64,000 nt of DNA from a bacterium (GTDB lineage Bacteria > ARS69): contig JAWKKG010000002.1 of the NCBI GenBank assembly GCA_041393395.1, positions 124,468 through 188,467 of the forward strand. The letters are read 5' to 3'. Within the stretch, counting starts at the first letter, position 1; the number at the start of each line of letters is the position of its first letter. The notes beneath the pieces were generated by a model, which saw only the letters and a list, made by a program, of their open reading frames with translations, was not told the origin of the DNA and searched no databases. The position numbers and the translations under genes were made by a program. Below are positions 43,270-61,747 of this stretch, in pieces.

Positions 43270-43285
43270 TGGCACCAACGTTGCT
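43270..43285 (+). promoter_or_regulatory. Sigma-54 (-24/-12) promoter TGGCAC-N5-TTGCT
   Basis: TGGCACcaacgTTGCT has exact GG-N10-GC spacing. It lies 178 bp downstream of the sigma-54 activator gene and upstream of a small ORF and the LTD/C-tag protein gene. Confidence 0.6.
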
Positions 43286-52448: not shown

Positions 52449-53686
52449 GACTCCCGCAGGTGATGCGCATCGCGAAGCGCGAGTACGTGGAGAGCGTGCG
52501 CAAGAAGTCGTTCGTGTTCGGTCTGATCGCCACGCCGGTGCTGCTGCTGATGATGGTGGTGCTGCCGCTCGTGTCCGGTGCCCTGTTCGACGCGGACGAG
52601 GCGAGGATCGCCGTCGTGGATCCCACGGGCGAGATCGGGCCGCGGCTCGCCGGCACGGACTGGCCGAGCGGAGACGGCGCGCGCACGCGCTCCGAGTTCG
52701 TGGTGTACGAGAGCAATGCACCTTCTCCCGAGACGCTGGACGCGCTCGTGGCGGCCGGCGAGTACAGCGGCTGGCTGCGCGTGCCCGAGGACTTCGAGCA
52801 GACGGGCAAGTACGAGTACCGCAGCGAGTCGGTCACGAACGTGGCGCTCCTGCAGGCGCTGGAGACGCGACTCGATCAGCTCGCGGCGGAGCGGGAGGCG
52901 CGCCGTCTCGGGCTGGACGACGCGCAGGTCGAGCGCCTGCTCGCCGGCACGTCGCTGCGCACGATCCGTCTCGGCGCCGATGGAGCGTCCGAGGCCGACT
53001 TCACGCAGGTGTACCTGAAGGCCGTGGCGCTCGTGATGATCCTGTTCTTCGCGCTGATCCCCACCGGCCACATCCTCATGCGGTCCGTGATCGAGGAGAA
53101 GGCGAACCGCGTGATCGAGGTGCTCGTGTCCAGCGTGTCGCCGCTGGAGCTGATGACGGGGAAGGTGCTGGGCCTCGGTGCCGTGGGGCTCACGATGCTC
53201 GGCGTGTGGACGGTGGCGGGCACGCTGCTGTCGATCCGGTTCGGGCGCGCGCTGCCGGTCGCGGGCGGAGAGCTCGCGGTGTTCGCGGCGTTCTTCGTGC
53301 CCGGTTACTTCCTGTTCGCCGCGCTGCTCGGCGGCATCGGCTCGGTGTGCCGCACCGAGCGCGACGCGCAGCCGTTCCTCACGCCGATCTCGATGACGAT
53401 GCTGCTGCCGGTGATGATCGGGTTCGCGATCGCGCAGCAGCCGGATCACTGGCTCGCGCGCGCGCTCACGTTCTTTCCCCCGATGACGCCGAGCCTCGTG
53501 CTGTTCCGCTACGCGATCAAGCCGCCCCCGTTCGCGGAGATGGCCGCGGCGTGGGTCTTGCTCGTGGCGGGCACGGTGATCACGCTGATCGCGGCGTCGC
53601 GCGTGTTCCGCACCGGCATCCTCATGACGGGCAAGCGGCCGACGTTGCCGGAGCTGCTGCGCTGGGCGAGGGCGTCGGCGGGGTAG
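52445..53686 (+). CDS. ABC-2 family transporter permease
   Basis: ATG overlaps the ATPase stop (ATGA). N-terminal TM, a large extracytoplasmic loop, then 5 C-terminal TMs; 413 aa. Confidence 0.8.
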   Translation: MRLPQVMRIAKREYVESVRKKSFVFGLIATPVLLLMMVVLPLVSGALFDADEARIAVVDPTGEIGPRLAGTDWPSGDGARTRSEFVVYESNAPSPETLDALVAAGEYSGWLRVPEDFEQTGKYEYRSESVTNVALLQALETRLDQLAAEREARRLGLDDAQVERLLAGTSLRTIRLGADGASEADFTQVYLKAVALVMILFFALIPTGHILMRSVIEEKANRVIEVLVSSVSPLELMTGKVLGLGAVGLTMLGVWTVAGTLLSIRFGRALPVAGGELAVFAAFFVPGYFLFAALLGGIGSVCRTERDAQPFLTPISMTMLLPVMIGFAIAQQPDHWLARALTFFPPMTPSLVLFRYAIKPPPFAEMAAAWVLLVAGTVITLIAASRVFRTGILMTGKRPTLPELLRWARASAG

Positions 53687-53830
53687 GGTTCGGGAATCCC
53701 GGATGCCGACCCGAGGTCGGCTCGAATACGTTCATATCAATGGAGTCGACGTCCGGCGACTCCCCAGCGCGCCTCTCCCCCGCGCGCTCGCCGAGACTCC
53801 TTCCACGCTCGTTGCGGCCTCCGAGCGTCT

Positions 53831-53882
53831 GCGACCGGATCCGCCGGTCGCTACTGCCCTCCCTCCCGGGAGACGCAAGATG
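53831..53882 (+). promoter_or_regulatory. Conserved 5' leader, copy A: 8-bp-arm palindrome GCGACCGG-ATCCG-CCGGTCGC, a C-rich tract, SD inside the palindrome CTCCCGGGAG, and the ATG
   Basis: Near-identical over 52 bp to 59189..59240 (copy B), which sits upstream of the paralogous beta-helix gene. Confidence 0.55.
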
Positions 53883-56800
53883 CGCAGGTTCTTGCAAGTC
53901 CTGGCACGAATCGTGCCCCCCCCCATTTCTGGAAACAGGTAGCGCGCTCGGAATCGCGGCACTCGCTCTGATACCCTGGTCCACAGCCCGGGCGGACGTT
54001 ACCGACGCCCGGCTCTGGGAGCCCGCCGTGCAGATGACGTTTGCCGAGTTCGACGTGCAGGTGCTGGCCAAGCAGCTCGCCCGCCGATCGGGTGGGGGGT
54101 TCCATCAGATCGTGGAAGCGTGGTCCGACAGCCTCGGTCGCAACAACGGCTTCGGCTGGTACCTCGAGGTCGGACCGTCCCTCGATTGGGCTTCGGCCTG
54201 GCAGGATCGCGAGCTGTTCACTTTCGTTCCCGACACGACTGTCGGAAACAAGGTCCCGTACGGGCATTCCGACTTTCGCATGCTCGTCAGCAACGACGAC
54301 GACGTACACGCGTTCTACGAGGCGAAGTTCTATCCGCCCGATTCGATCCGAGCAATGGTCGCTTACAAACGTCGGGGTGGGGTGTCGTGGGACTCCGCGT
54401 CCGACCCGGTGTTTCTCGCTCCCGGCTGCGTGAGTGACTCGCCGCGCCCCTACTACGATAGCGAAACAGACATCATGCACCTGATGTTCACGGCGGCGGC
54501 TACCACGGGATGCTACCCCGCTCCTCCGTCCGGCACGGACCTGCAGGTCTATACGAGAAAGGCAGTGTCCGCCGCAGACTCCGCTTGGGCGCCGCTGACG
54601 TACATGTACCCGAGCATTGGCCTCGGTCCGATCGGGGGCGGTGTGTTCGCGGAAGCCGACACGGTGCACTTCTTCGGGAGTCGAACAGAGAACCAAAGCG
54701 GGTGGAAAGTCGTCACGGTGATCCACCGGAGCGGACTCCGCCCGCCCCCGGCGAGTACTGGACGTTCGCCCACGTCGATACGCTCGACTCTTTTCTGGTG
54801 CCTGGTGATGGCGATCCCCGATCGGAGCCCGAGGACCAGCCCACACCCTTCGAAGGGGCCAGCGGCGACTCCCTCTACGTGGCCTGGGCTCGACCGATGG
54901 GTACGACCGGCGCCGACGAGGTGATGTTCGCCGTCTACGATCTTCGGGACACTTTATGGACCCCGGACAACTGCCCCACGGGTAACTGCGGTTCGCTTCC
55001 CCCGTTCGGTCTCCAGCTCACGACGACGGATGATTCCGCGGAGGACTCGTGGGATCCAAAGGTGGTCGTAGACGCGGCCGGCGCCGTTCACGTCTTCTAT
55101 CGCGTCGGCGATCCCTCGACCCTGCAGCACTTGTTCAACTCTGGCGACCCGACCAACCTCGCGGACTGGAGCGAGCCGACGATCCTGTCGTTCGAGGAGG
55201 AGCACACGGCGAGACTGCCGACGGTGGTCGCCGACGCTGACACCCTGTGGGTCGCGTACTCCGCTCAGTCTCTGACCGGATGCACGGCGAATTGCCGGCA
55301 GGGCTTCTTCAAGCTCGGCACCCGTCACGTGAACTGGGGCGGCACGGTCAACGTCCGCTCGGACTTCGTCGTGGCGTCGGCCGGCACGCTCTCGATCGCG
55401 CCGGGCACCACGGTGATCGCGGGCGCGGCTCCCGTCGGAAACCTGGGCAATCGCGCGGACGACGTCGAGATCGTGGTGGGCGGAACCCTGCTCGCGGAAG
55501 GAACGTCGACCGAGGCGGTGACCTTCACCGGAGATGTCGCGACCCCGGGATCCTGGGGAGGCATCTTGTTCCGCGACACCGCCGACGACTCGCCGAGTTC
55601 GATCTCGTACGCCGACTTCGAGTATCCGGAGTTCGCGGTGCAGGTCGACTCGCTGGCCGGGACGCTGTTTCGGCCCACGTTTGCGGGAGTCGCCCAGGCC
55701 GACGTCTACGTTGATCGGAGTACACGGTTGCCGCTGGGATCGGCCTGGTGGTTCGAATCCCCCGTGAGCATCCGCGTTGCTTCTGAGGACGCCGCCCAGC
55801 CGGGTGGTGACATCTCCATCACCATCGACGGCGACCTGTACGCGCAGCCCGCGGGTGGCCGGGTGCAGGTTCTGTCCGCGTCCCCGACCGCAAGCGGGGA
55901 GGACTGGGAGGGGATGGTCGTCCGGTCTGCGGGCACGATCATCGCCTCGAACCTCGAGATCGGGCACTGCCGCAATCCCCTGACTCTGCTTGCCGCGGAC
56001 CACGCGCAGCTCTTCGACAGTGAACTTCACACCTTCGCGGGAGACGGTGTGTTCGACTGGGGCTCAGATGCGCGCATCGAGCGATGCCTCATTTGGAACG
56101 GCGGGCTCGATGTGCAGGCGAGCGCTGGATCCGCGATTCGCAGCATCAGCTCGGCGACTTGGGCTCTTGCCGACACCATCGACGGTCGGTTTTCGCACGG
56201 AATCTGGAGCTCGTATTCATACGGATTCTGCACCGCGGCCCCGATTCCGCTCGGGAAGACCATCCAGATCGACGGGAATGTGATCCGAGGCCCCGGCGTC
56301 GAACACCCTTCGGAGACGGGACGCGGACTGTACGTCGAGTGGATCTGTCACGGAATCGACGCGCTGGTGTCGGACAACTGTGTCTCGCAGTGGCCGCAGC
56401 AGGGCATCTCGCTCTCCAATGCGGCCAACACCCAGGTCGCGTGCAACTGGGTGGACAGTACGGAAGTCGGACTGAAACATTTCCGGGGCGATCATGTTCC
56501 CTCGGGTGACGCGGACGTCCAGTTCCGACGGAACGTTGTCAGTGCCTGGGAGACTCGCGGCATCAACGTGACCTCTCCGGAGGGGTTCGAAATGGCGGAT
56601 CTCTCCACAGCGGCGCGGAACGAGGTGCGCCAGGATGGCCAGGACGACACCTTCGTTCGGTTTCGCCCCACGAGCAGCACGCAAGGTGCCGAGTTCGATG
56701 TGAGCAACCAGCTCTGGGTTGACCCCACCGGCGCCGTTCTCACGGATCCTGCGGACGTGCTCACCGACTGCGACTTCAACCTGCTGTCGCCCATCGTGAT

Positions 56801-57206
56801 CACCTCGCTGCTGACGTCCCAGGAGCGCTGCGCGAGCATAGCGACGTGCCCAGGAAGCTCGCAGGCGGTGGCCCGGCGAGGCGCAGACCGCGCACCGGAA
56901 CCAGGAGCAGAACGTGGCGACCCGCCACGCCGTTTCGAGAGCTTCGTGGAAACGGTGGCCGGGCGAGCGCGAGTCGTGCTGGCCGGTCCGGCGGACACGG
57001 AGCCGCCCGTGCAGGGGCGTGTCTACGACGTCGCCGGGCGTCTCGTTCAGGAGGTCCATGGCACCTTGGTGTCTCCCGGTCGGTACGTGCTCGAATGGAA
57101 CGGCTCGACTGGGGCAGGCCATCAAGCGGCAGACGGTGTGTACTTCTTGCGCGTCGAAGCCCCGGGCCATCATCGAACGCACAAGATCGTCCGGATCCGG
57201 AGGTAG
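53880..57206 (+). CDS. Large secreted protein: BNR/sialidase-like N-terminal region, right-handed beta-helix region, and a FlgD-Ig/T9SS-type C-terminal domain. As sequenced, the reading frame is broken twice at homopolymeric C tracts (C9 at 53916..53924 and C5 at 54745..54749), so it may be a pseudogene, a sequencing artefact or phase-variable.
   Basis: Frame 0 gives ATG 53880 MRRFLQVLARIVPPP..., which stops at 53942. Frame 1 (53925..54749) continues a signal-peptide-like ...FLETGSALGIAALALIPWSTARA|DVTD... and plausible protein up to ...WKVVTVIHRSG. Frame 0 again (54750..57206) runs GEYWTFAHVD... to the C-terminus ...GRVYDVAGRLVQEVHGTLVSPGRYVLEWNGS...GVYFLRVEA.... Removing one C at the first tract and adding one at the second restores a single ORF of about 1105 aa. 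Confidence 0.55.
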
Positions 57207-57208
57207 CC

Positions 57209-58513
57209 ATGCGACGACTTTCGATTTCGGGCGGAGTGATCGCCCTTCTCTCGACAGGGTTCGCTTCGATCGACGTGGCTTCCGCGACGACTCTACGGGT
57301 CCCCGAGGACTTCCCGACCATTCAAGCGGCCGTGGACGCGGCGGGTCCGATCGACGTCGTGGACGTCGCCCCGGGCACGTGGTCGGACGCGGAGACGCGT
57401 TCCGTCTGGAACGGCGGGATGTACGTCAACGTCCGGTCGGTCGTGTTCTTGAAACCGGGAATCACCGTGCGCTCTCGGAGTGGCGCCGAAGCCACGGTCA
57501 TCGACCTGTCGCTGAACCCCGGTCCGGGGTTCCAGACCCCCGTGGTCTATCCGGGACAACAGGCGGGGCCCGCGACGATCCAGGGCTTCACGGTGCTCGG
57601 AGCCGGCTCGGGCGGAGGCGGCATCAGTTCCCTCGCGGCGCAGAAGCTCATCGTCCGCGACTGCATCGTGCGGGACATCCACACCGGGGGACGTGCGATC
57701 ACGACGGCCAACGGCGGTGGGCTGGAGATCTACGACACCCTCGTGGAGAACGTCACCTTGCTCGGCGGCACCGCGGTCCGCGCCATCAGCGGCGGAAGTC
57801 TGAAGATGATCCGGACTACGATTCGCGACAACTCGGCGGGTGGGGTCTACTCCACGGTTCCGACGATCCTCGAGGATTGCAACTTCGTCCGGAATCGGAC
57901 GACGCAAGTGGGAGCAGGAGCCAACCTCCAGGGGCCGTCCGAAGTCACGCGGTGTCTGTTTCAGGAGAATGTCTCGCTGGAGGATCCAGGCGGGGGATTG
58001 GTCGTCTCGTCGTCACCCGCTGTAGTCGAGGGATGCACTTTCGCTCGCGATTCCTGCGGCGCCACGGGAGCGGCGGCGGGGATGTGGGTGGCTTATGCGC
58101 CGGGACTCTCGGTGATTCGCAACAACACATTCGTCGGGTGCCATTCTCCGGTCTTCCCTGCATCTGCGTTCGGCGTGTCCAGTAGCGTCGTCGAGTTCTC
58201 GAACAACATCGTCGCTGGCAGCACCGGATCGGCCGCACTGCACAACGTTGGTGGCACGATCACGGGGGGCTGCAACGACTACTGGAACAACGAGGAAGGG
58301 GACTTCGAGGCCTGGACCCCGCTCCCCACCGACTTGTCCGCCGATCCACTCTTTTGCGATCCCGAAGCTCACGATTTCCGACTGCACAGCAACTCTCCTT
58401 GCGCGCCGGATCAGAACCCGACCTGCGGTCAGGTCGGAGCTTGGTCCGTCGCGTGCGGTTCCGTGTCCATCGAGCCCCTGTCCTGGGGGCGAATCAAGGG
58501 GGCGTACCGATGA
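57209..58513 (+). CDS. Secreted right-handed beta-helix protein, paralog A, with the ...SWGRIKGAYR C-terminal tag
   Basis: GGAGG RBS 3 nt after the upstream stop. Signal peptide MRRLSISGGVIALLSTGFASIDVASA. N-terminal LRVPEDFPTIQAAVDAA is a pectin-lyase-fold hallmark. C-terminal module GCNDYWNNEEGDF...DPLFCDPEAHDFRLHSNSPC...CGSVSIEPLSWGRIKGAYR. 434 aa. Confidence 0.8.
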   Translation: MRRLSISGGVIALLSTGFASIDVASATTLRVPEDFPTIQAAVDAAGPIDVVDVAPGTWSDAETRSVWNGGMYVNVRSVVFLKPGITVRSRSGAEATVIDLSLNPGPGFQTPVVYPGQQAGPATIQGFTVLGAGSGGGGISSLAAQKLIVRDCIVRDIHTGGRAITTANGGGLEIYDTLVENVTLLGGTAVRAISGGSLKMIRTTIRDNSAGGVYSTVPTILEDCNFVRNRTTQVGAGANLQGPSEVTRCLFQENVSLEDPGGGLVVSSSPAVVEGCTFARDSCGATGAAAGMWVAYAPGLSVIRNNTFVGCHSPVFPASAFGVSSSVVEFSNNIVAGSTGSAALHNVGGTITGGCNDYWNNEEGDFEAWTPLPTDLSADPLFCDPEAHDFRLHSNSPCAPDQNPTCGQVGAWSVACGSVSIEPLSWGRIKGAYR

Positions 58514-59124
58514 AACCGCGTGCGATCTCGCTCGTCCTCGCAGTGCTCGCCGCTGCCACCTCCGTCCACGCCGAGACTCAGGTCTTCCCGTGCACGGAGC
58601 AGGCGGTGATCACCAGCGGCGCGGGTCTGGGGCGTCTTCTCTTCCGATTCGATGGCACGACGGTCCTGCGCGATGAACTCGTCACGGCGGCGTGGCTCGA
58701 TGTCTCCTGTTCGAACGCATCTGGCGACGCCCTCACCGTGCGGATGGCTCCGCTGGATCGGGCCTGGTCGGTCGGATCCGTGACCTGGACGTCTCCGTGG
58801 CACGACGCCGGCGGCGATCTCGCTCGAGCGTTCGTAACGACCGAGGACGTCGCGTCCAGTTCGGTCCGCCTGAACGTGACGGAGTGGGTGCGCAGTCACC
58901 TCGCCGGAGAGGTCGCGGACTACGGCCTCATGCTCACGGTCGACGACGGGGCGCGAGGGGGTCTTACCTCCAACGAACGAGCGATATTCGGCGATCCGCC
59001 GGTCGCCACGCTGACGATCGAGTTCCGTAGCTTGACGGCTCAAGGGATCGAAGGCGGGCCCCGCGCCTACTTGGCGCGTCGTGAGGCGCGCGTCGCGGCC
59101 GATCGGGCGGACCGGTTGAGGTAG
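58510..59124 (+). CDS. Small secreted partner protein A (unknown family), translationally coupled to beta-helix A
   Basis: ATG overlaps the upstream stop (ATGA). Signal peptide MKPRAISLVLAVLAAATSVHA. Paralogous to 60562..61191 through shared blocks S(V/A)TW(T/S)SPW, ...E(V/G)(A/L)(D/G)YGL(M/I)..., ...L(T/A)(I/L)(E/R)(F/V)RSLTA(Q/R)G. 204 aa. Confidence 0.7.
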   Translation: MKPRAISLVLAVLAAATSVHAETQVFPCTEQAVITSGAGLGRLLFRFDGTTVLRDELVTAAWLDVSCSNASGDALTVRMAPLDRAWSVGSVTWTSPWHDAGGDLARAFVTTEDVASSSVRLNVTEWVRSHLAGEVADYGLMLTVDDGARGGLTSNERAIFGDPPVATLTIEFRSLTAQGIEGGPRAYLARREARVAADRADRLR

Positions 59125-59188
59125 CGGACTCGGCGAGGCTGTCCGTCGCCCGGCGATGACCGCCTGGGCTTCGCTGAAGTTCTCGTCG

Positions 59189-59240
59189 GCGACCGGATCC
59201 GCCGGTCGCACCTGCCCTCCCTCCCGGGAGACGCAAGATG
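59189..59240 (+). promoter_or_regulatory. Conserved 5' leader, copy B (palindrome, C-rich tract, SD, ATG)
   Basis: GCGACCGGATCCGCCGGTCGCACCTGCCCTCCCTCCCGGGAGACGCAAGATGCG differs from copy A at only 2 positions. Confidence 0.55.
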
Positions 59241-60575
59241 CGAGGCCCTCGATCGATTGCACGCCGGAGACTTGTGTGCGGCGCGGCGACTGGTGGTGAT
59301 CCGATGAGATTGCGAATCACTCTCGCCGCGGGGATCGTCTTCGGTGTCGGCCTTGCTGCGGCCGACGCGAGCATCCTCCGGGTTCCTGAGGACTACTCGT
59401 CTGTCCTCGCGGCGGTCGACGCCGCGGTTTCGGGCGACAGCGTGCTCGTTCAGCCGGGCACTTGGACCGACACGGCGATCCGGATCGCTCCCACCGGAGC
59501 GTACGTCAAGTCCACGCTGTTCGTGAAGCCGGGCATCACCGTGCTGGGGCTCGGTGGACCGGAGGTCACGACGCTCGATGTTGGTCCGGAAGTTGGTGCG
59601 TTCGCCGTGACGATTACAAACAATGCTCCTGGCTCGGCGCCGTCGTACGTGATTGGCTTCACCATCACGGGTGGCGGGACAGGTGTTGGCGGATACGGCG
59701 GATCTCCCCTGGAGCTCCACGATTGCCGGATCGTCGACAATCCGCGGCAGGCGGCCAACATCGCCTACACCCGCTTGACCTTGGTCGGAGGAACAATCAC
59801 GGGAAATGCAGAGGGTCAGTCGAGCCCGCAGTGGGGATGTGTGTTCGGCCACGAAAGCGCCTTGGAACTGCGACAAGTCACGATCGAACGAAACTCAAAC
59901 GTCTTCGGTGTCGTTTTCGATAGCCAACCACAGTCTGTTCGCTTGATCGACTGCACGTTTCTCGACCAGACGCTCGCCTGCCGCGTCTGGGACTGCCCGG
60001 ACTTCGTGGTCGAGAACTGCTCGTTCGTCCGGTGTTCGGACGGTGGCATTCAAGTGCGAAACTGCCAGGGTCGGATCGAGTTCACGACGTTCGCTTATGA
60101 CACGTCCGGGGCGGGTGGGGGAGCCCAGCTGAGTCGCTCGACGATCGAAGTCAGCAACAACACGTTCTATCGCTGCCACACCGACGGATCCGCCGCCGCA
60201 CTGTCCGTTTCGTTCACGGACGGCGGCGTCCACAACAACATCTTCACGGGCTGCACGACACCCCGCGGCACGGTCTCCTTCGGCGGCGGCACCCAGCACC
60301 CCTCCACCGGCTGCAACCTCTTCTGGGACAACGAGGGCGACGACTTCTGGAACGACTGGGTCCCCGCCCCCACCGACATCGAGGCGGACCCCGAGTTCTG
60401 CAACGAAACCGTCCTCGACCTGACGCTGCACTCCACGTCCCCCGCCGCCTCCGCGAACTCCGCCTGCGGTCTCCTCGGCGCGTTCGATGTCGGCTGCGGC
60501 TCCGTCTCCGTCGACGCCACGAGCTGGGGTCGCCTCAAGAACCTCTACCGGAGCTCGGATCATGAAGACCGCTAG
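59238..60575 (+). CDS. Secreted right-handed beta-helix protein, paralog B, with the ...SWGRLKNLYR C-terminal tag
   Basis: The conserved-leader ATG at 59238 is in frame; an alternative start ATG at 59303 gives a clean signal peptide MRLRITLAAGIVFGVGLAAADA. LRVPEDYSSVLAAVDAA; beta-helix repeats; C-terminal module GCNLFWDNEGDDF...DPEFCNETVLDLTLHSTSP...CGSVSVDATSWGRLKNLYRSSDHEDR. Confidence 0.8.
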   Translation: MRGPRSIARRRLVCGAATGGDPMRLRITLAAGIVFGVGLAAADASILRVPEDYSSVLAAVDAAVSGDSVLVQPGTWTDTAIRIAPTGAYVKSTLFVKPGITVLGLGGPEVTTLDVGPEVGAFAVTITNNAPGSAPSYVIGFTITGGGTGVGGYGGSPLELHDCRIVDNPRQAANIAYTRLTLVGGTITGNAEGQSSPQWGCVFGHESALELRQVTIERNSNVFGVVFDSQPQSVRLIDCTFLDQTLACRVWDCPDFVVENCSFVRCSDGGIQVRNCQGRIEFTTFAYDTSGAGGGAQLSRSTIEVSNNTFYRCHTDGSAAALSVSFTDGGVHNNIFTGCTTPRGTVSFGGGTQHPSTGCNLFWDNEGDDFWNDWVPAPTDIEADPEFCNETVLDLTLHSTSPAASANSACGLLGAFDVGCGSVSVDATSWGRLKNLYRSSDHEDR

Positions 60576-61191
60576 AACGCATTCGATCGCGCTCCTCGCG
60601 CTCGCCGCCATCCTGGGCGCAGTCGCTCCTTCCCGGGCGAGCGAGCCGACTCTCTCCCTCTCGCGCACGGTGATCACGGACTCCTACGGCCGCTCCCGGA
60701 TCCTGTTCGAGATCCCGTCGTTGCAGGAGTACCGCGAGGAGTGGGTCTCCTCCGCCACCTTGATCCTCGACCTGCCTCCCGGATCCTTCCCGGGCGAAGT
60801 CGAGCTCCTGGTGGACGCCGTCGCGACCCCGTGGGGCGGAAGTGCCACGTGGAGTTCGCCGTGGACTCACCCCGGCGGCGACGTGGAAGGGCAGACCGGC
60901 GACGGCACCACCCTGGCCGCCGGACCGTCCCCGTCTCAGGTCCGACTCGACGTGACCACCGCGCTCCGCGGCATGGTGGAGGGCGACCTCGGCGAGTACG
61001 GACTCATCGTGTACCCGTCCGATCCCGCGAAGCCGGGGTTCACGGCCGCGGAATCCCAGGTGCTCGCCTCCGCCAGCGGGACGCTGGCGCTGCGGGTCCG
61101 CAGCCTCACCGCGCGCGGCTACCACGGGGGAGCCAAGGCGCTCCTGGATCGCAAGCGCAGCGCCCGACTCCTGGAGGACCATCCGCAGTAG
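60562..61191 (+). CDS. Small secreted partner protein B, paralog of 58510..59124
   Basis: ATG lies 14 nt before the upstream stop, so the genes overlap. Signal peptide MKTARTHSIALLALAAILGAVAPSRA. It has the same conserved blocks as partner A. 209 aa. Confidence 0.7.
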   Translation: MKTARTHSIALLALAAILGAVAPSRASEPTLSLSRTVITDSYGRSRILFEIPSLQEYREEWVSSATLILDLPPGSFPGEVELLVDAVATPWGGSATWSSPWTHPGGDVEGQTGDGTTLAAGPSPSQVRLDVTTALRGMVEGDLGEYGLIVYPSDPAKPGFTAAESQVLASASGTLALRVRSLTARGYHGGAKALLDRKRSARLLEDHPQ

Positions 61192-61228
61192 CGCCGCAAC
61201 CTCCTCCTCGCACGCTTCGAGCAATGAA

Positions 61229-61270
61229 GAAGGGCAGGCCGTCCTCGACGACCTGCCCTCGCTTCTTCAG
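61229..61270. terminator. Candidate bidirectional terminator hairpin between convergent genes
   Basis: AGGGCAGG-(14 nt loop)-CCTGCCCT is followed by CGCTTCTTC. The U-tract is weak. Confidence 0.35.
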
Positions 61271-61291
61271 CTCTCTCCGCCCGCGTCTCCG

Positions 61292-61747
61292 CTAGCGGTA
61301 GATCGACTTCACCCGACCCCAGCTCTCGCTCTCCACGGAGATCGCCGGGAACTCCGGGGCGCCCATCTGGATCCACTCGCGGATCACGTCGATGGTCGTC
61401 TGCGGCAGCGGGCCGCCGATGAGCGGCATCTGGTTGCCCACGATCCACGGGCAGTTCTCGAGCTTGCAGATGATGTAGCTGTTGTCCGGATCGAACGGCG
61501 CCACGCGAACCGCCGTGGGCACCTCCACGCTCGGCACGTCCACGAGGAAGCTGAACGCCTGGCCCTCGCGCAGGTCGAGGTTCGCCTGCATCGCGCCGCC
61601 GTGGCAGGCGGCGAGCGCGCAGCCCGGCGTGAAGACGTTCGCCTGGATGTCCTGCAGGGTGGGCTCGAACGGACCGCCCGCGGCCCGGGCGCTGCCGAAG
61701 CCGAGGAGGGTCAGAACGGAAAGAGTCGCAATCGTCGCAACGCGCAT
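61292..61747 (-). CDS. Small secreted Cys-motif protein carrying the same ...SESWGRVKSIYR C-terminal tag
   Basis: Start at ATG 61747. Signal peptide MRVATIATLSVLTLLGFGSARA. Contains CALAACHG (Cx4CH) and CKLENC. 151 aa. The 216-aa upstream extension is rejected. Confidence 0.6.
   Translation of the reverse strand: MRVATIATLSVLTLLGFGSARAAGGPFEPTLQDIQANVFTPGCALAACHGGAMQANLDLREGQAFSFLVDVPSVEVPTAVRVAPFDPDNSYIICKLENCPWIVGNQMPLIGGPLPQTTIDVIREWIQMGAPEFPAISVESESWGRVKSIYR

Follow-up and report, generated by a model that had tools for sequence, protein, structure and literature searches.

Frame layout of the gene

The gene considered here occupies positions 53880 to 57206 (+ strand) of a 64,000-nucleotide stretch of bacterial DNA (contig JAWKKG010000002.1, assembly GCA_041393395.1; the whole stretch is called the window below). 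It appears to encode a large secreted protein, and its reading frame is broken twice. The question raised by this locus is whether the breaks are errors of the assembly, marks of decay, or part of a device by which the gene is switched. We consider it probable that the first break, a run of nine C (C9), is a slipped-strand phase-variation switch caught in its OFF phase, and that this copy carries in addition a second lesion outside any simple sequence repeat (SSR).

Translation from the ATG at 53880, which follows a Shine-Dalgarno (SD)-like GGGAG at 53868-72, proceeds in frame 0 for 20 codons (MRRFLQVLARIVPPPISGNR) and ends at TAG 53940, as a preliminary description of the locus had stated. 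GC content at third codon positions (GC3) and Viterbi decoding of codon usage agree that coding then lies in frame 1 (position modulo 3 = 1) from about 53992 to 54752 and passes at 54753 into frame 0, where it stays until the stop at 57204-06, so that the segment between the breaks is protein-like only in the shifted frame. The window (69.5% GC) contains 20 same-strand frame transitions, and the one inside this gene is the only one without a nearby stop: the stop of the upstream frame is 170 nt off here, versus at most 65 nt in the other 19. Together with the frame signals, this sole stop-less transition indicates that the gene is truly split 0 to 1 to 0 and that the assembly is not generally ridden with frameshifts. 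Neither coding segment contains an in-frame stop (3.3 kb), and the GC3 signal of the gene is retained at 0.72-0.90, somewhat under that of the window's best genes.

Three segments of the + strand can thus be told apart. The frame-0 reading from the SD-linked ATG (53880..53942, TAG included) has the appearance of the N-terminal extension of a signal peptide, cut off by an out-of-phase C tract. The frame-1 segment (53925..54737) encodes the signal-peptide core GSALGIAALALIPWSTARA, an LWEPAVQ motif and the predicted first blades of a beta-propeller; this assignment draws on GC3, Viterbi decoding, alignment to 19 homologues, identity to a paralogue over residues 52-286 and a structural model. The second frame-0 segment (54738..57206) would encode the remaining propeller, a right-handed beta-helix region and a C-terminal sorting domain resembling FlgD-Ig at about 56979-57161, and homologues align to it in a single stretch. 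In the source metagenome-assembled genome (MAG), which bears the locus tags R3B81_00755/00760, the Prokaryotic Genome Annotation Pipeline (PGAP) split the gene into two coding sequences: MEZ5063229.1 (P0001), the frame-1 open reading frame (ORF) running from GTG 54027 to the frame-1 stop at 54922..54924 (+ strand), and MEZ5063230.1 (P0152, 769 aa), its call for the frame-0 part. The final 204 aa of the frame-0 ORF are identical to P0002, a call from a Logan assembly.

The start codon belongs to a conserved 59-nt leader block (53826..53884, + strand) that ends 2 nt past it and recurs at 59184-59242 (+ strand) with 56/59 identical positions, bearing out the earlier mention of a conserved leader. 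In the second copy the ATG is in frame with its own gene, a second beta-helix gene, which supports ATG 53880 as a real start. Between leader and signal-peptide core, frame 1 has no ATG, GTG or TTG; its first start codon is the GTG at 54027, beyond both the signal peptide and the conserved LWEP motif. Because frame 1 lacks a start codon of its own, a shift within 53880-53940 is required, and the C9 tract (53916..53924, + strand) is the sole candidate for it. This tract, already proposed as the first break, begins 36 nt past the ATG and is the longest homopolymer of the window, followed by G7, G7 and T7. Were the tract C8 or C11, ATG and signal-peptide core would share one frame. In the C8 version the N-terminus reads MRRFLQVLARIVPPP-FLETGSALGIAALALIPWSTARA|DV, with predicted cleavage before the D at 53995 after the motif A-R-A; the core of this signal-peptide-like continuation, foreseen in the preliminary description, indeed aligns with homologues.

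With both frames restored, the gene product has 1108 aa. An exhaustive HMMER search returned 2867 relatives, about 20 of them full-length (1040-1180 aa, 26-38% identity). These full-length homologues (about 1100 aa) read through both break sites; P0004, for instance, aligns to query residues 23-1105 in one stretch. In the alignment the signal peptide is followed by a conserved LWEP-x-QV motif.

Simple sequence repeats at the 5' ends of homologous loci

The preliminary description had called for a comparison with orthologues. We compared the window with eight other fetched loci of the family (nine loci in total; 141,172 nt of non-redundant sequence), counting as a long SSR any homopolymer of at least 8 nt or at least five copies of a non-triplet unit. 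Five of the eight carry a long SSR at the 5' end. Locus L002, on contig CAYYFX010000001.1 of assembly GCA_964471155.1, has G10 located 122 nt upstream of the ATG. L006, from ERZ24842132, has C9 located 64 nt past an SD-linked ATG, inside the signal-peptide region, with an in-frame TAA five codons later. In L008, from SRR12009705, G10 at +29/+45 accounts for a GGG that separates a short N-terminal extension from the signal-peptide core; two alternative ATGs, in two frames, lie upstream. L004 contains a perfect (CTCCACT)x8.9 array which abuts a 100-N scaffold gap and lies immediately 5' of the signal-peptide core. L011, the orthologue of L004 in another MAG, contains (TCCGCTC)x8 from 15 nt past the ATG; its signal-peptide core is read in the +1 frame together with the mature protein, and a repeat shorter by one unit restores the whole ORF. 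No long SSR was found at the 5' end of L005, L007 or L012.

Long SSRs were thus strongly concentrated at the starts of the family genes. Six out of seven lay no more than 150 nt to either side of a family start codon, although such stretches account for 1.85% of the total length (binomial P=2.7e-10; with the window's own tract left out, 1.3e-8). These six are C9, G10, C9, G10 and two 7-nt tandem arrays, most of them between start codon and signal-peptide core. The layout of the window gene, also seen in L008, L011 and L004, is therefore a recurring one (ATG, short extension, frame-shifting repeat, signal-peptide core) that, on comparison of the loci, is realized with different repeat types; such a layout is the signature of simple-sequence contingency loci. 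The suggestion of slipped-strand phase variation made in the preliminary description accordingly gains strong comparative support for the first tract, and does not extend to the second break. The single long homopolymer beyond the family 5' zone is a C8 in L012 (9220-9227), which encodes D-P-P-R in frame and is situated in the signal-peptide/cleavage region of an unrelated amidohydrolase-like gene.

Codon choice favours the coding tracts beyond what the encoded amino acids by themselves would bring about. In simulations, synonymous codon choice alone would yield at least C8 at the window tract with P=0.06, and for the three coding homopolymers, given their peptides, the values were P=0.06, 0.05 and 0.03.

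In four loci (the window, L011, L008 when read from ATG48, and L005) the SD-linked ATG is out of frame, and in 4/4 the signal peptide lies in the +1 frame; were the two OFF phases equally likely, the chance that all four share this offset would be 1/16. The shared offset, a tract one unit over its ON length, may reflect a bias towards expansion or it may reflect recoding. In L005 (427-520) the strong-SD ATG at 427 is out of frame with the signal-peptide core (+1 needed), the stretch between them holds C4 at most and no long repeat, and canonical start codons are absent from the in-frame stretch.

This offset is where an explanation by recoding or by a leader peptide has to be weighed. According to it, the 20-codon ORF is a poly-proline leader, an alternative raised in the preliminary description, or else ribosome or RNA polymerase slips by +1 on CCC-CCC-CCC as a conserved control of expression. 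Stalling and +1 slippage are known to occur at CCC-C contexts and PPP motifs (EF-P, m1G37), which makes slippage at the tract conceivable, and the +1 position of the signal peptide in all four out-of-frame loci would fit. A separate upstream ORF is ruled out by the missing start codon of the main frame; moreover, the residues past the tract form the signal-peptide core that aligns with homologues, and the ATG of the second leader copy is the in-frame start of its gene. As to slippage, the slip site has neither a stop nor a rare codon: CCC-CCC-CCC is followed by ATT TCT GGA AAC AGG and then, five codons on, by TAG. The features of a programmed +1 frameshift of the prfB/antizyme type were not found, there being no internal SD upstream at the right spacing. 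The heptanucleotide arrays of L004 and L011 are devices of DNA slippage and do not serve as slip sites for ribosomes, and reading from the second ATG of L008 is in frame. The second lesion of the window gene is not set in a slippery context, and the paralogue P0151, described below, does not have it. We regard this explanation as the least probable of the rivals to phase variation. The proposal that the +1 offset is a conserved family trait, the genes being expressed through +1 recoding at the repeat (by ribosomal slippage on CCC-C/GGG-G or by transcriptional slippage), appears to us very unlikely; if true, it would couple the production of a surface protein to EF-P or tRNA-modification status, with or without switching at the DNA level.

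The second frame break and an intact paralogue

The preliminary description had placed the second shift in a C5 tract (54745..54749, + strand), and thus both shifts at homopolymeric C tracts. This part has to be revised in the light of P0151 (MEZ5063760.1), an intact paralogue of 1108 aa encoded about 530 genes away on the same 1.16-Mb contig and belonging to the same 90% cluster as P0002 and P0152. Across the second junction P0151 reads ...VIHRSGLPPAPGEYWTF... (HRSG-LPPAPGEYW; HRSGLPPAPGEYWTF), and only insertions after 54736-54739 reproduce its HRSGLPPAPGEYW. The missing base thus falls at 54737-54739, and the true break (54736..54740, + strand) is CTCCG against the CTC-CCG implied by the paralogue, most parsimoniously a CC (54738-39) that should be CCC. 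It is a single-base deficit in a CC/CCC run and not a slip in a homopolymeric tract. Repair in the C5 tract gives LRPPPGEYW instead, two residues off the paralogue; since the window contains 84 C5/G5 runs, the nearness of this one is incidental.

In the alignment an invariant Gly (G285) of the block H-x-x-G-x-P-P-x-P-G-x-x-W sits exactly at the second junction, and an AlphaFold (AF2) model of residues 1-597 is all-beta (pLDDT 78, pTM 0.78) with confident strands on both sides. According to this model, the repaired N-terminal domain is one continuous beta-propeller.

After repair at 54736-54739 the product is identical to P0151 over residues 52-386, differs at 10 positions over residues 387-471 (about 90% identity), is identical again over residues 472-597, and is about 30% identical from residue 598 on. 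This mosaic suggests a recent homogenisation, by gene conversion, of the N-terminal propeller between old paralogues (53880-55670 versus P0151). The one-base deficit is the sole difference from P0151 in 335 codons, with zero amino-acid changes over residues 52-386. We thus take the second lesion to be one of two things: a very young mutation that inactivated a redundant copy, or an error of the consensus within an intragenomic repeat of 1.8 kb. The start that PGAP assigned to P0151 is residue 52, after the signal peptide, which hints that this paralogue, too, is out of phase. Two further candidates were rejected. P0001 (87% identical, query 50-339) had been considered as an intact relative across the second junction; it is the window's own frame-1 ORF, including its out-of-frame tail. 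A single gene conversion with misaligned end-points, which would have made both shifts at once, is at odds with the identity to P0151 continuing for 100 codons past the second junction.

Both breaks might be errors of consensus or assembly. The true sequence would then be C8 and CTC-CCG, and the gene would be intact and expressed, reads having been mis-assigned in the near-identical repeat of about 1.8 kb shared with P0151 and C9 being the hardest homopolymer to call. Both defects are single-C length differences in C-rich runs, and an indel as the sole difference over 335 codons, with no substitutions, is atypical of decay and typical of an indel-prone consensus; the 1.16-Mb, repeat-spanning MAG contig also suggests long reads. 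An ORF that is interrupted by single-base length differences relative to an intact paralogue, and split by PGAP, is indeed what homopolymer errors in MAGs look like. The assembly is otherwise accurate, however, with no further frame break in about 60 kb of coding sequence; P0151 presents the same sequence context and is intact at the second junction, so the error would not be systematic; and an independent Logan assembly of SRR28338158, a run in which this organism is present, is a 100% match to the window over 56573-57672, its only overlap. Moreover, some homologue tracts, such as that of L011, are also out of phase in short-read (SPAdes or k-mer) assemblies. An error would leave the existence of the tract unexplained, together with the recurrent SSRs at the same position in homologues and the tract-favouring codon choice, and it would be compatible with the tract being a phase-variation SSR. 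We judge it fairly unlikely that both breaks are errors.

The same interruption relative to an intact paralogue would be expected of a frameshifted pseudogene, that is, a redundant copy decaying through two independent frameshifts, whose C9 would have no role in switching and would have come about incidentally, as a by-product of encoding a Pro-rich signal peptide at 70% genomic GC. Consistent with this are the presence of two lesions in this gene and none elsewhere in the window, the redundancy provided by P0151, the GC3 values somewhat under those of the best genes, and the inactivating stop likewise present in L006. The absence of in-frame stops in 3.3 kb and of amino-acid changes relative to P0151 over 335 codons means, however, that any decay would be extremely recent. 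The idea of a by-product is contradicted by the codon-choice test (P=0.06, 0.05 and 0.03) and by the recurrence of poly-C, poly-G and two different heptamers at the same position in homologues, which plain decay, like a MAG error, leaves without explanation. We therefore hold a plain pseudogene to be quite improbable.

Proposed phase variation and known contingency loci

Phase variation at the C9 tract is the reading we favour. On this view, family members typically carry a hypermutable SSR near the 5' end, in most cases after the SD-linked start codon and ahead of the hydrophobic signal-peptide core. At the C9 length the ATG frame stops after 20 codons, the OFF state; slipped-strand mispairing during replication, removing one C or adding two, would fuse the ATG to the signal peptide, the ON state, as in the classical translational phase variation of a contingency locus. 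In the window copy a change of one unit, to C8, would join the ATG to signal peptide and propeller, and the second break at 54737-39 would still truncate the product at the frame-1 stop (54922-54924), leaving a protein of only 347 aa; as assembled, no full-length protein would be made in any phase. General criteria for SSR phase variation have been set out (Lin & Kussell, PMC3315296, who also cover N-terminal enrichment; PMC6321876). The C9 tract is a hypermutable repeat at the 5' end in the usual sense (a homopolymer of at least about 8 nt or at least five non-triplet copies), and homologues keep a repeat at this position more often than chance or amino-acid constraint would produce. We infer that tract length varies in the population and that expression switches with it.

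Several observations weigh against this reading. Only one locus is represented by a pair of independent assemblies, L002 and L003; both have G10, and no polymorphism in tract length was seen; searches for sibling contigs of the window turned up none. Three of the nine loci (L005, L007 and L012) have no long SSR. L006 is broken by its in-frame TAA and not by the phase of its tract. The window copy, with its second, non-SSR lesion, may simply be dead. Finally, the nine loci trace back to only some six or seven MAGs or samples, with orthologues among them (L004 and L011), and are thus not fully independent. As regards L006 (2854-3003), ATG and mature part are in the same frame, the TAA (2941-43) directly precedes the conserved LWSPQAQVT motif, and coverage of the contig is just 4.8x.

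Simple-sequence contingency loci are well established: the poly-G tract of Neisseria pilC, the CTCTT repeats of Neisseria opa, the poly-G genes of Campylobacter jejuni, and the tetranucleotide-repeat genes of Haemophilus influenzae with their alternative ATGs. The loci described here resemble them in having a G/C homopolymer of 9-10 nt or a non-triplet repeat just past the start of a secreted or surface gene, in a frame that would toggle upon a one-unit change, and in belonging to paralogous families. L008, with two ATGs in two frames upstream of the tract, is like the H. influenzae lic genes, and L002, with its tract in the promoter region, is like Neisseria porA and opc. Unlike the known loci, they occur in uncultured, high-GC environmental bacteria and not in host-adapted pathogens, the homologous loci with organism labels being from Gemmatimonadota MAGs; the cargo is a T9SS-type (type IX secretion system) propeller/beta-helix protein, the heptanucleotide units are unusual, and the repeats are known here from assembled sequence and not from length polymorphism. 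Reversible frameshifts in short C runs also occur in other high-GC bacteria, in the 7C tract of Mycobacterium tuberculosis glpK and the C6 tract of Bordetella bvgS. There, as proposed here, a coding poly-C tract in a high-GC genome gives ON/OFF variants; those tracts, in contrast, are in regulator or metabolic genes and their position is not conserved across a family, whereas the tract described here belongs to a 5' architecture that recurs.

To our knowledge, SSR contingency loci, which are textbook matter in host-adapted pathogens, have hardly been documented in free-living, uncultured high-GC phyla. A search of a paper library returned no paper joining type IX secretion, phase variation and homopolymeric tracts, and when Gemmatimonadota were searched for together with phase variation or simple sequence repeats, the ten top-ranked matches did not mention Gemmatimonadota. 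If tract lengths vary, environmental bacteria with T9SS-type cargo would also use stochastic ON/OFF switching of large carbohydrate-active or adhesin-like surface proteins, plausibly driven by pressure from phages or predators or by bet-hedging on polysaccharide substrates. In the annotation of MAGs, such genes are systematically mis-called, either split or begun past the signal peptide, as by PGAP here, and automatic correction of the frame breaks, as if these were homopolymer errors, should be avoided.

Protein family, leader and gene neighbourhood

The C-terminal domain of the repaired protein matches FlgD_ig (PF13860) with 32.1 bits against a cut-off of 27, and there is a weak match to Beta_helix. 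The preliminary description had noted a T9SS-type C-terminal domain. FlgD_ig is related to such domains; TIGR04183 (T9SS type A sorting) scored 15.7 bits, under its cut-off of 23, and Por_Secre_tail gave a faint match, on homologue P0003. The paralogue P0151 bears the NCBI name 'T9SS type A sorting domain-containing protein'. Signal-peptide core, FlgD_ig domain and this name point to a secreted or surface product. Among PDB structures the AF2 model comes closest to carbohydrate-active enzymes with a beta-propeller fold (PL25 ulvan lyase, GH145 and sialidases), all of them remote matches (TM 0.3-0.45). The family consists of secreted or surface proteins of about 1100 aa with a signal peptide, a beta-propeller like those of carbohydrate enzymes, a beta-helix, and a FlgD-Ig/T9SS-type C-terminal domain. 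Searching genome and metagenome contigs with the repaired protein yielded no relatives; with a tighter alignment, two additional loci of the family came to light in genomes, but metagenomes gave nothing of use. In a word-indexed homologue search the full repaired protein had no match and its N-terminal part matched only P0001. Exact look-ups of P0001, P0151, the 394-aa frame-1 ORF and the permease encoded upstream had no match.

The leader block contains a perfect 8-bp inverted repeat (53831-38 / 53844-51, GCGACCGG-ATCCG-CCGGTCGC) and a predicted CUCCC...GGGAG hairpin that would sequester the SD sequence; both hairpins are predicted in both leader copies. An Rfam scan of 53000-61500 gave nothing relevant, and a scan of 53600-54000 for sigma-70 promoters and terminators found nothing. 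A sigma54-type -24/-12 match with one mismatch (TGGCACGAATCGTGC, 53902-16, + strand) lies between ATG and C tract and overlaps the first C. It was not adopted as a promoter: the window has two such matches (the other intergenic, at 43270-43284, + strand) versus 0.84 expected, which is not significant by count, and a transcript begun past the C tract would be unable to encode the signal peptide. In the homologous locus L002, a gene for a sigma54-dependent activator lies directly upstream (L002 3335-5737).

All homologous loci fetched share their synteny: after the big gene come a beta-helix protein of about 430 aa and then a protein of about 190-250 aa. The window has the same order on the + strand, with the beta-helix partner gene A1 at 57209-58513 and the small third gene B1 at 58510-59124; B1 matches a DNRLRE domain with 33.1 bits against a cut-off of 34 and, weakly, CBM96. 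The second leader copy precedes a beta-helix/DNRLRE gene pair, A2/B2, without a big gene, and this pair with its leader may be the remnant of a deleted family copy. B2 (60562-61188, + strand) is a putative paralogue of B1, judged by where it lies within the duplicated A-B module and by its comparable size; it has no Pfam match at E<=0.01.

Five different window proteins end in the tag [ST]WG[RS]-x-K-x-x-[YF]R, followed by 0-7 residues and the stop. The C-termini concerned lie near 2987, 44668, 58513 and 60575 on the + strand and near 61292 on the - strand, and further copies are found in L005 (~5188) and L007 (~7788). No Pfam or NCBIfam model covers this tag, which also closes the beta-helix partner protein in homologous loci and may represent an undescribed sorting signal.

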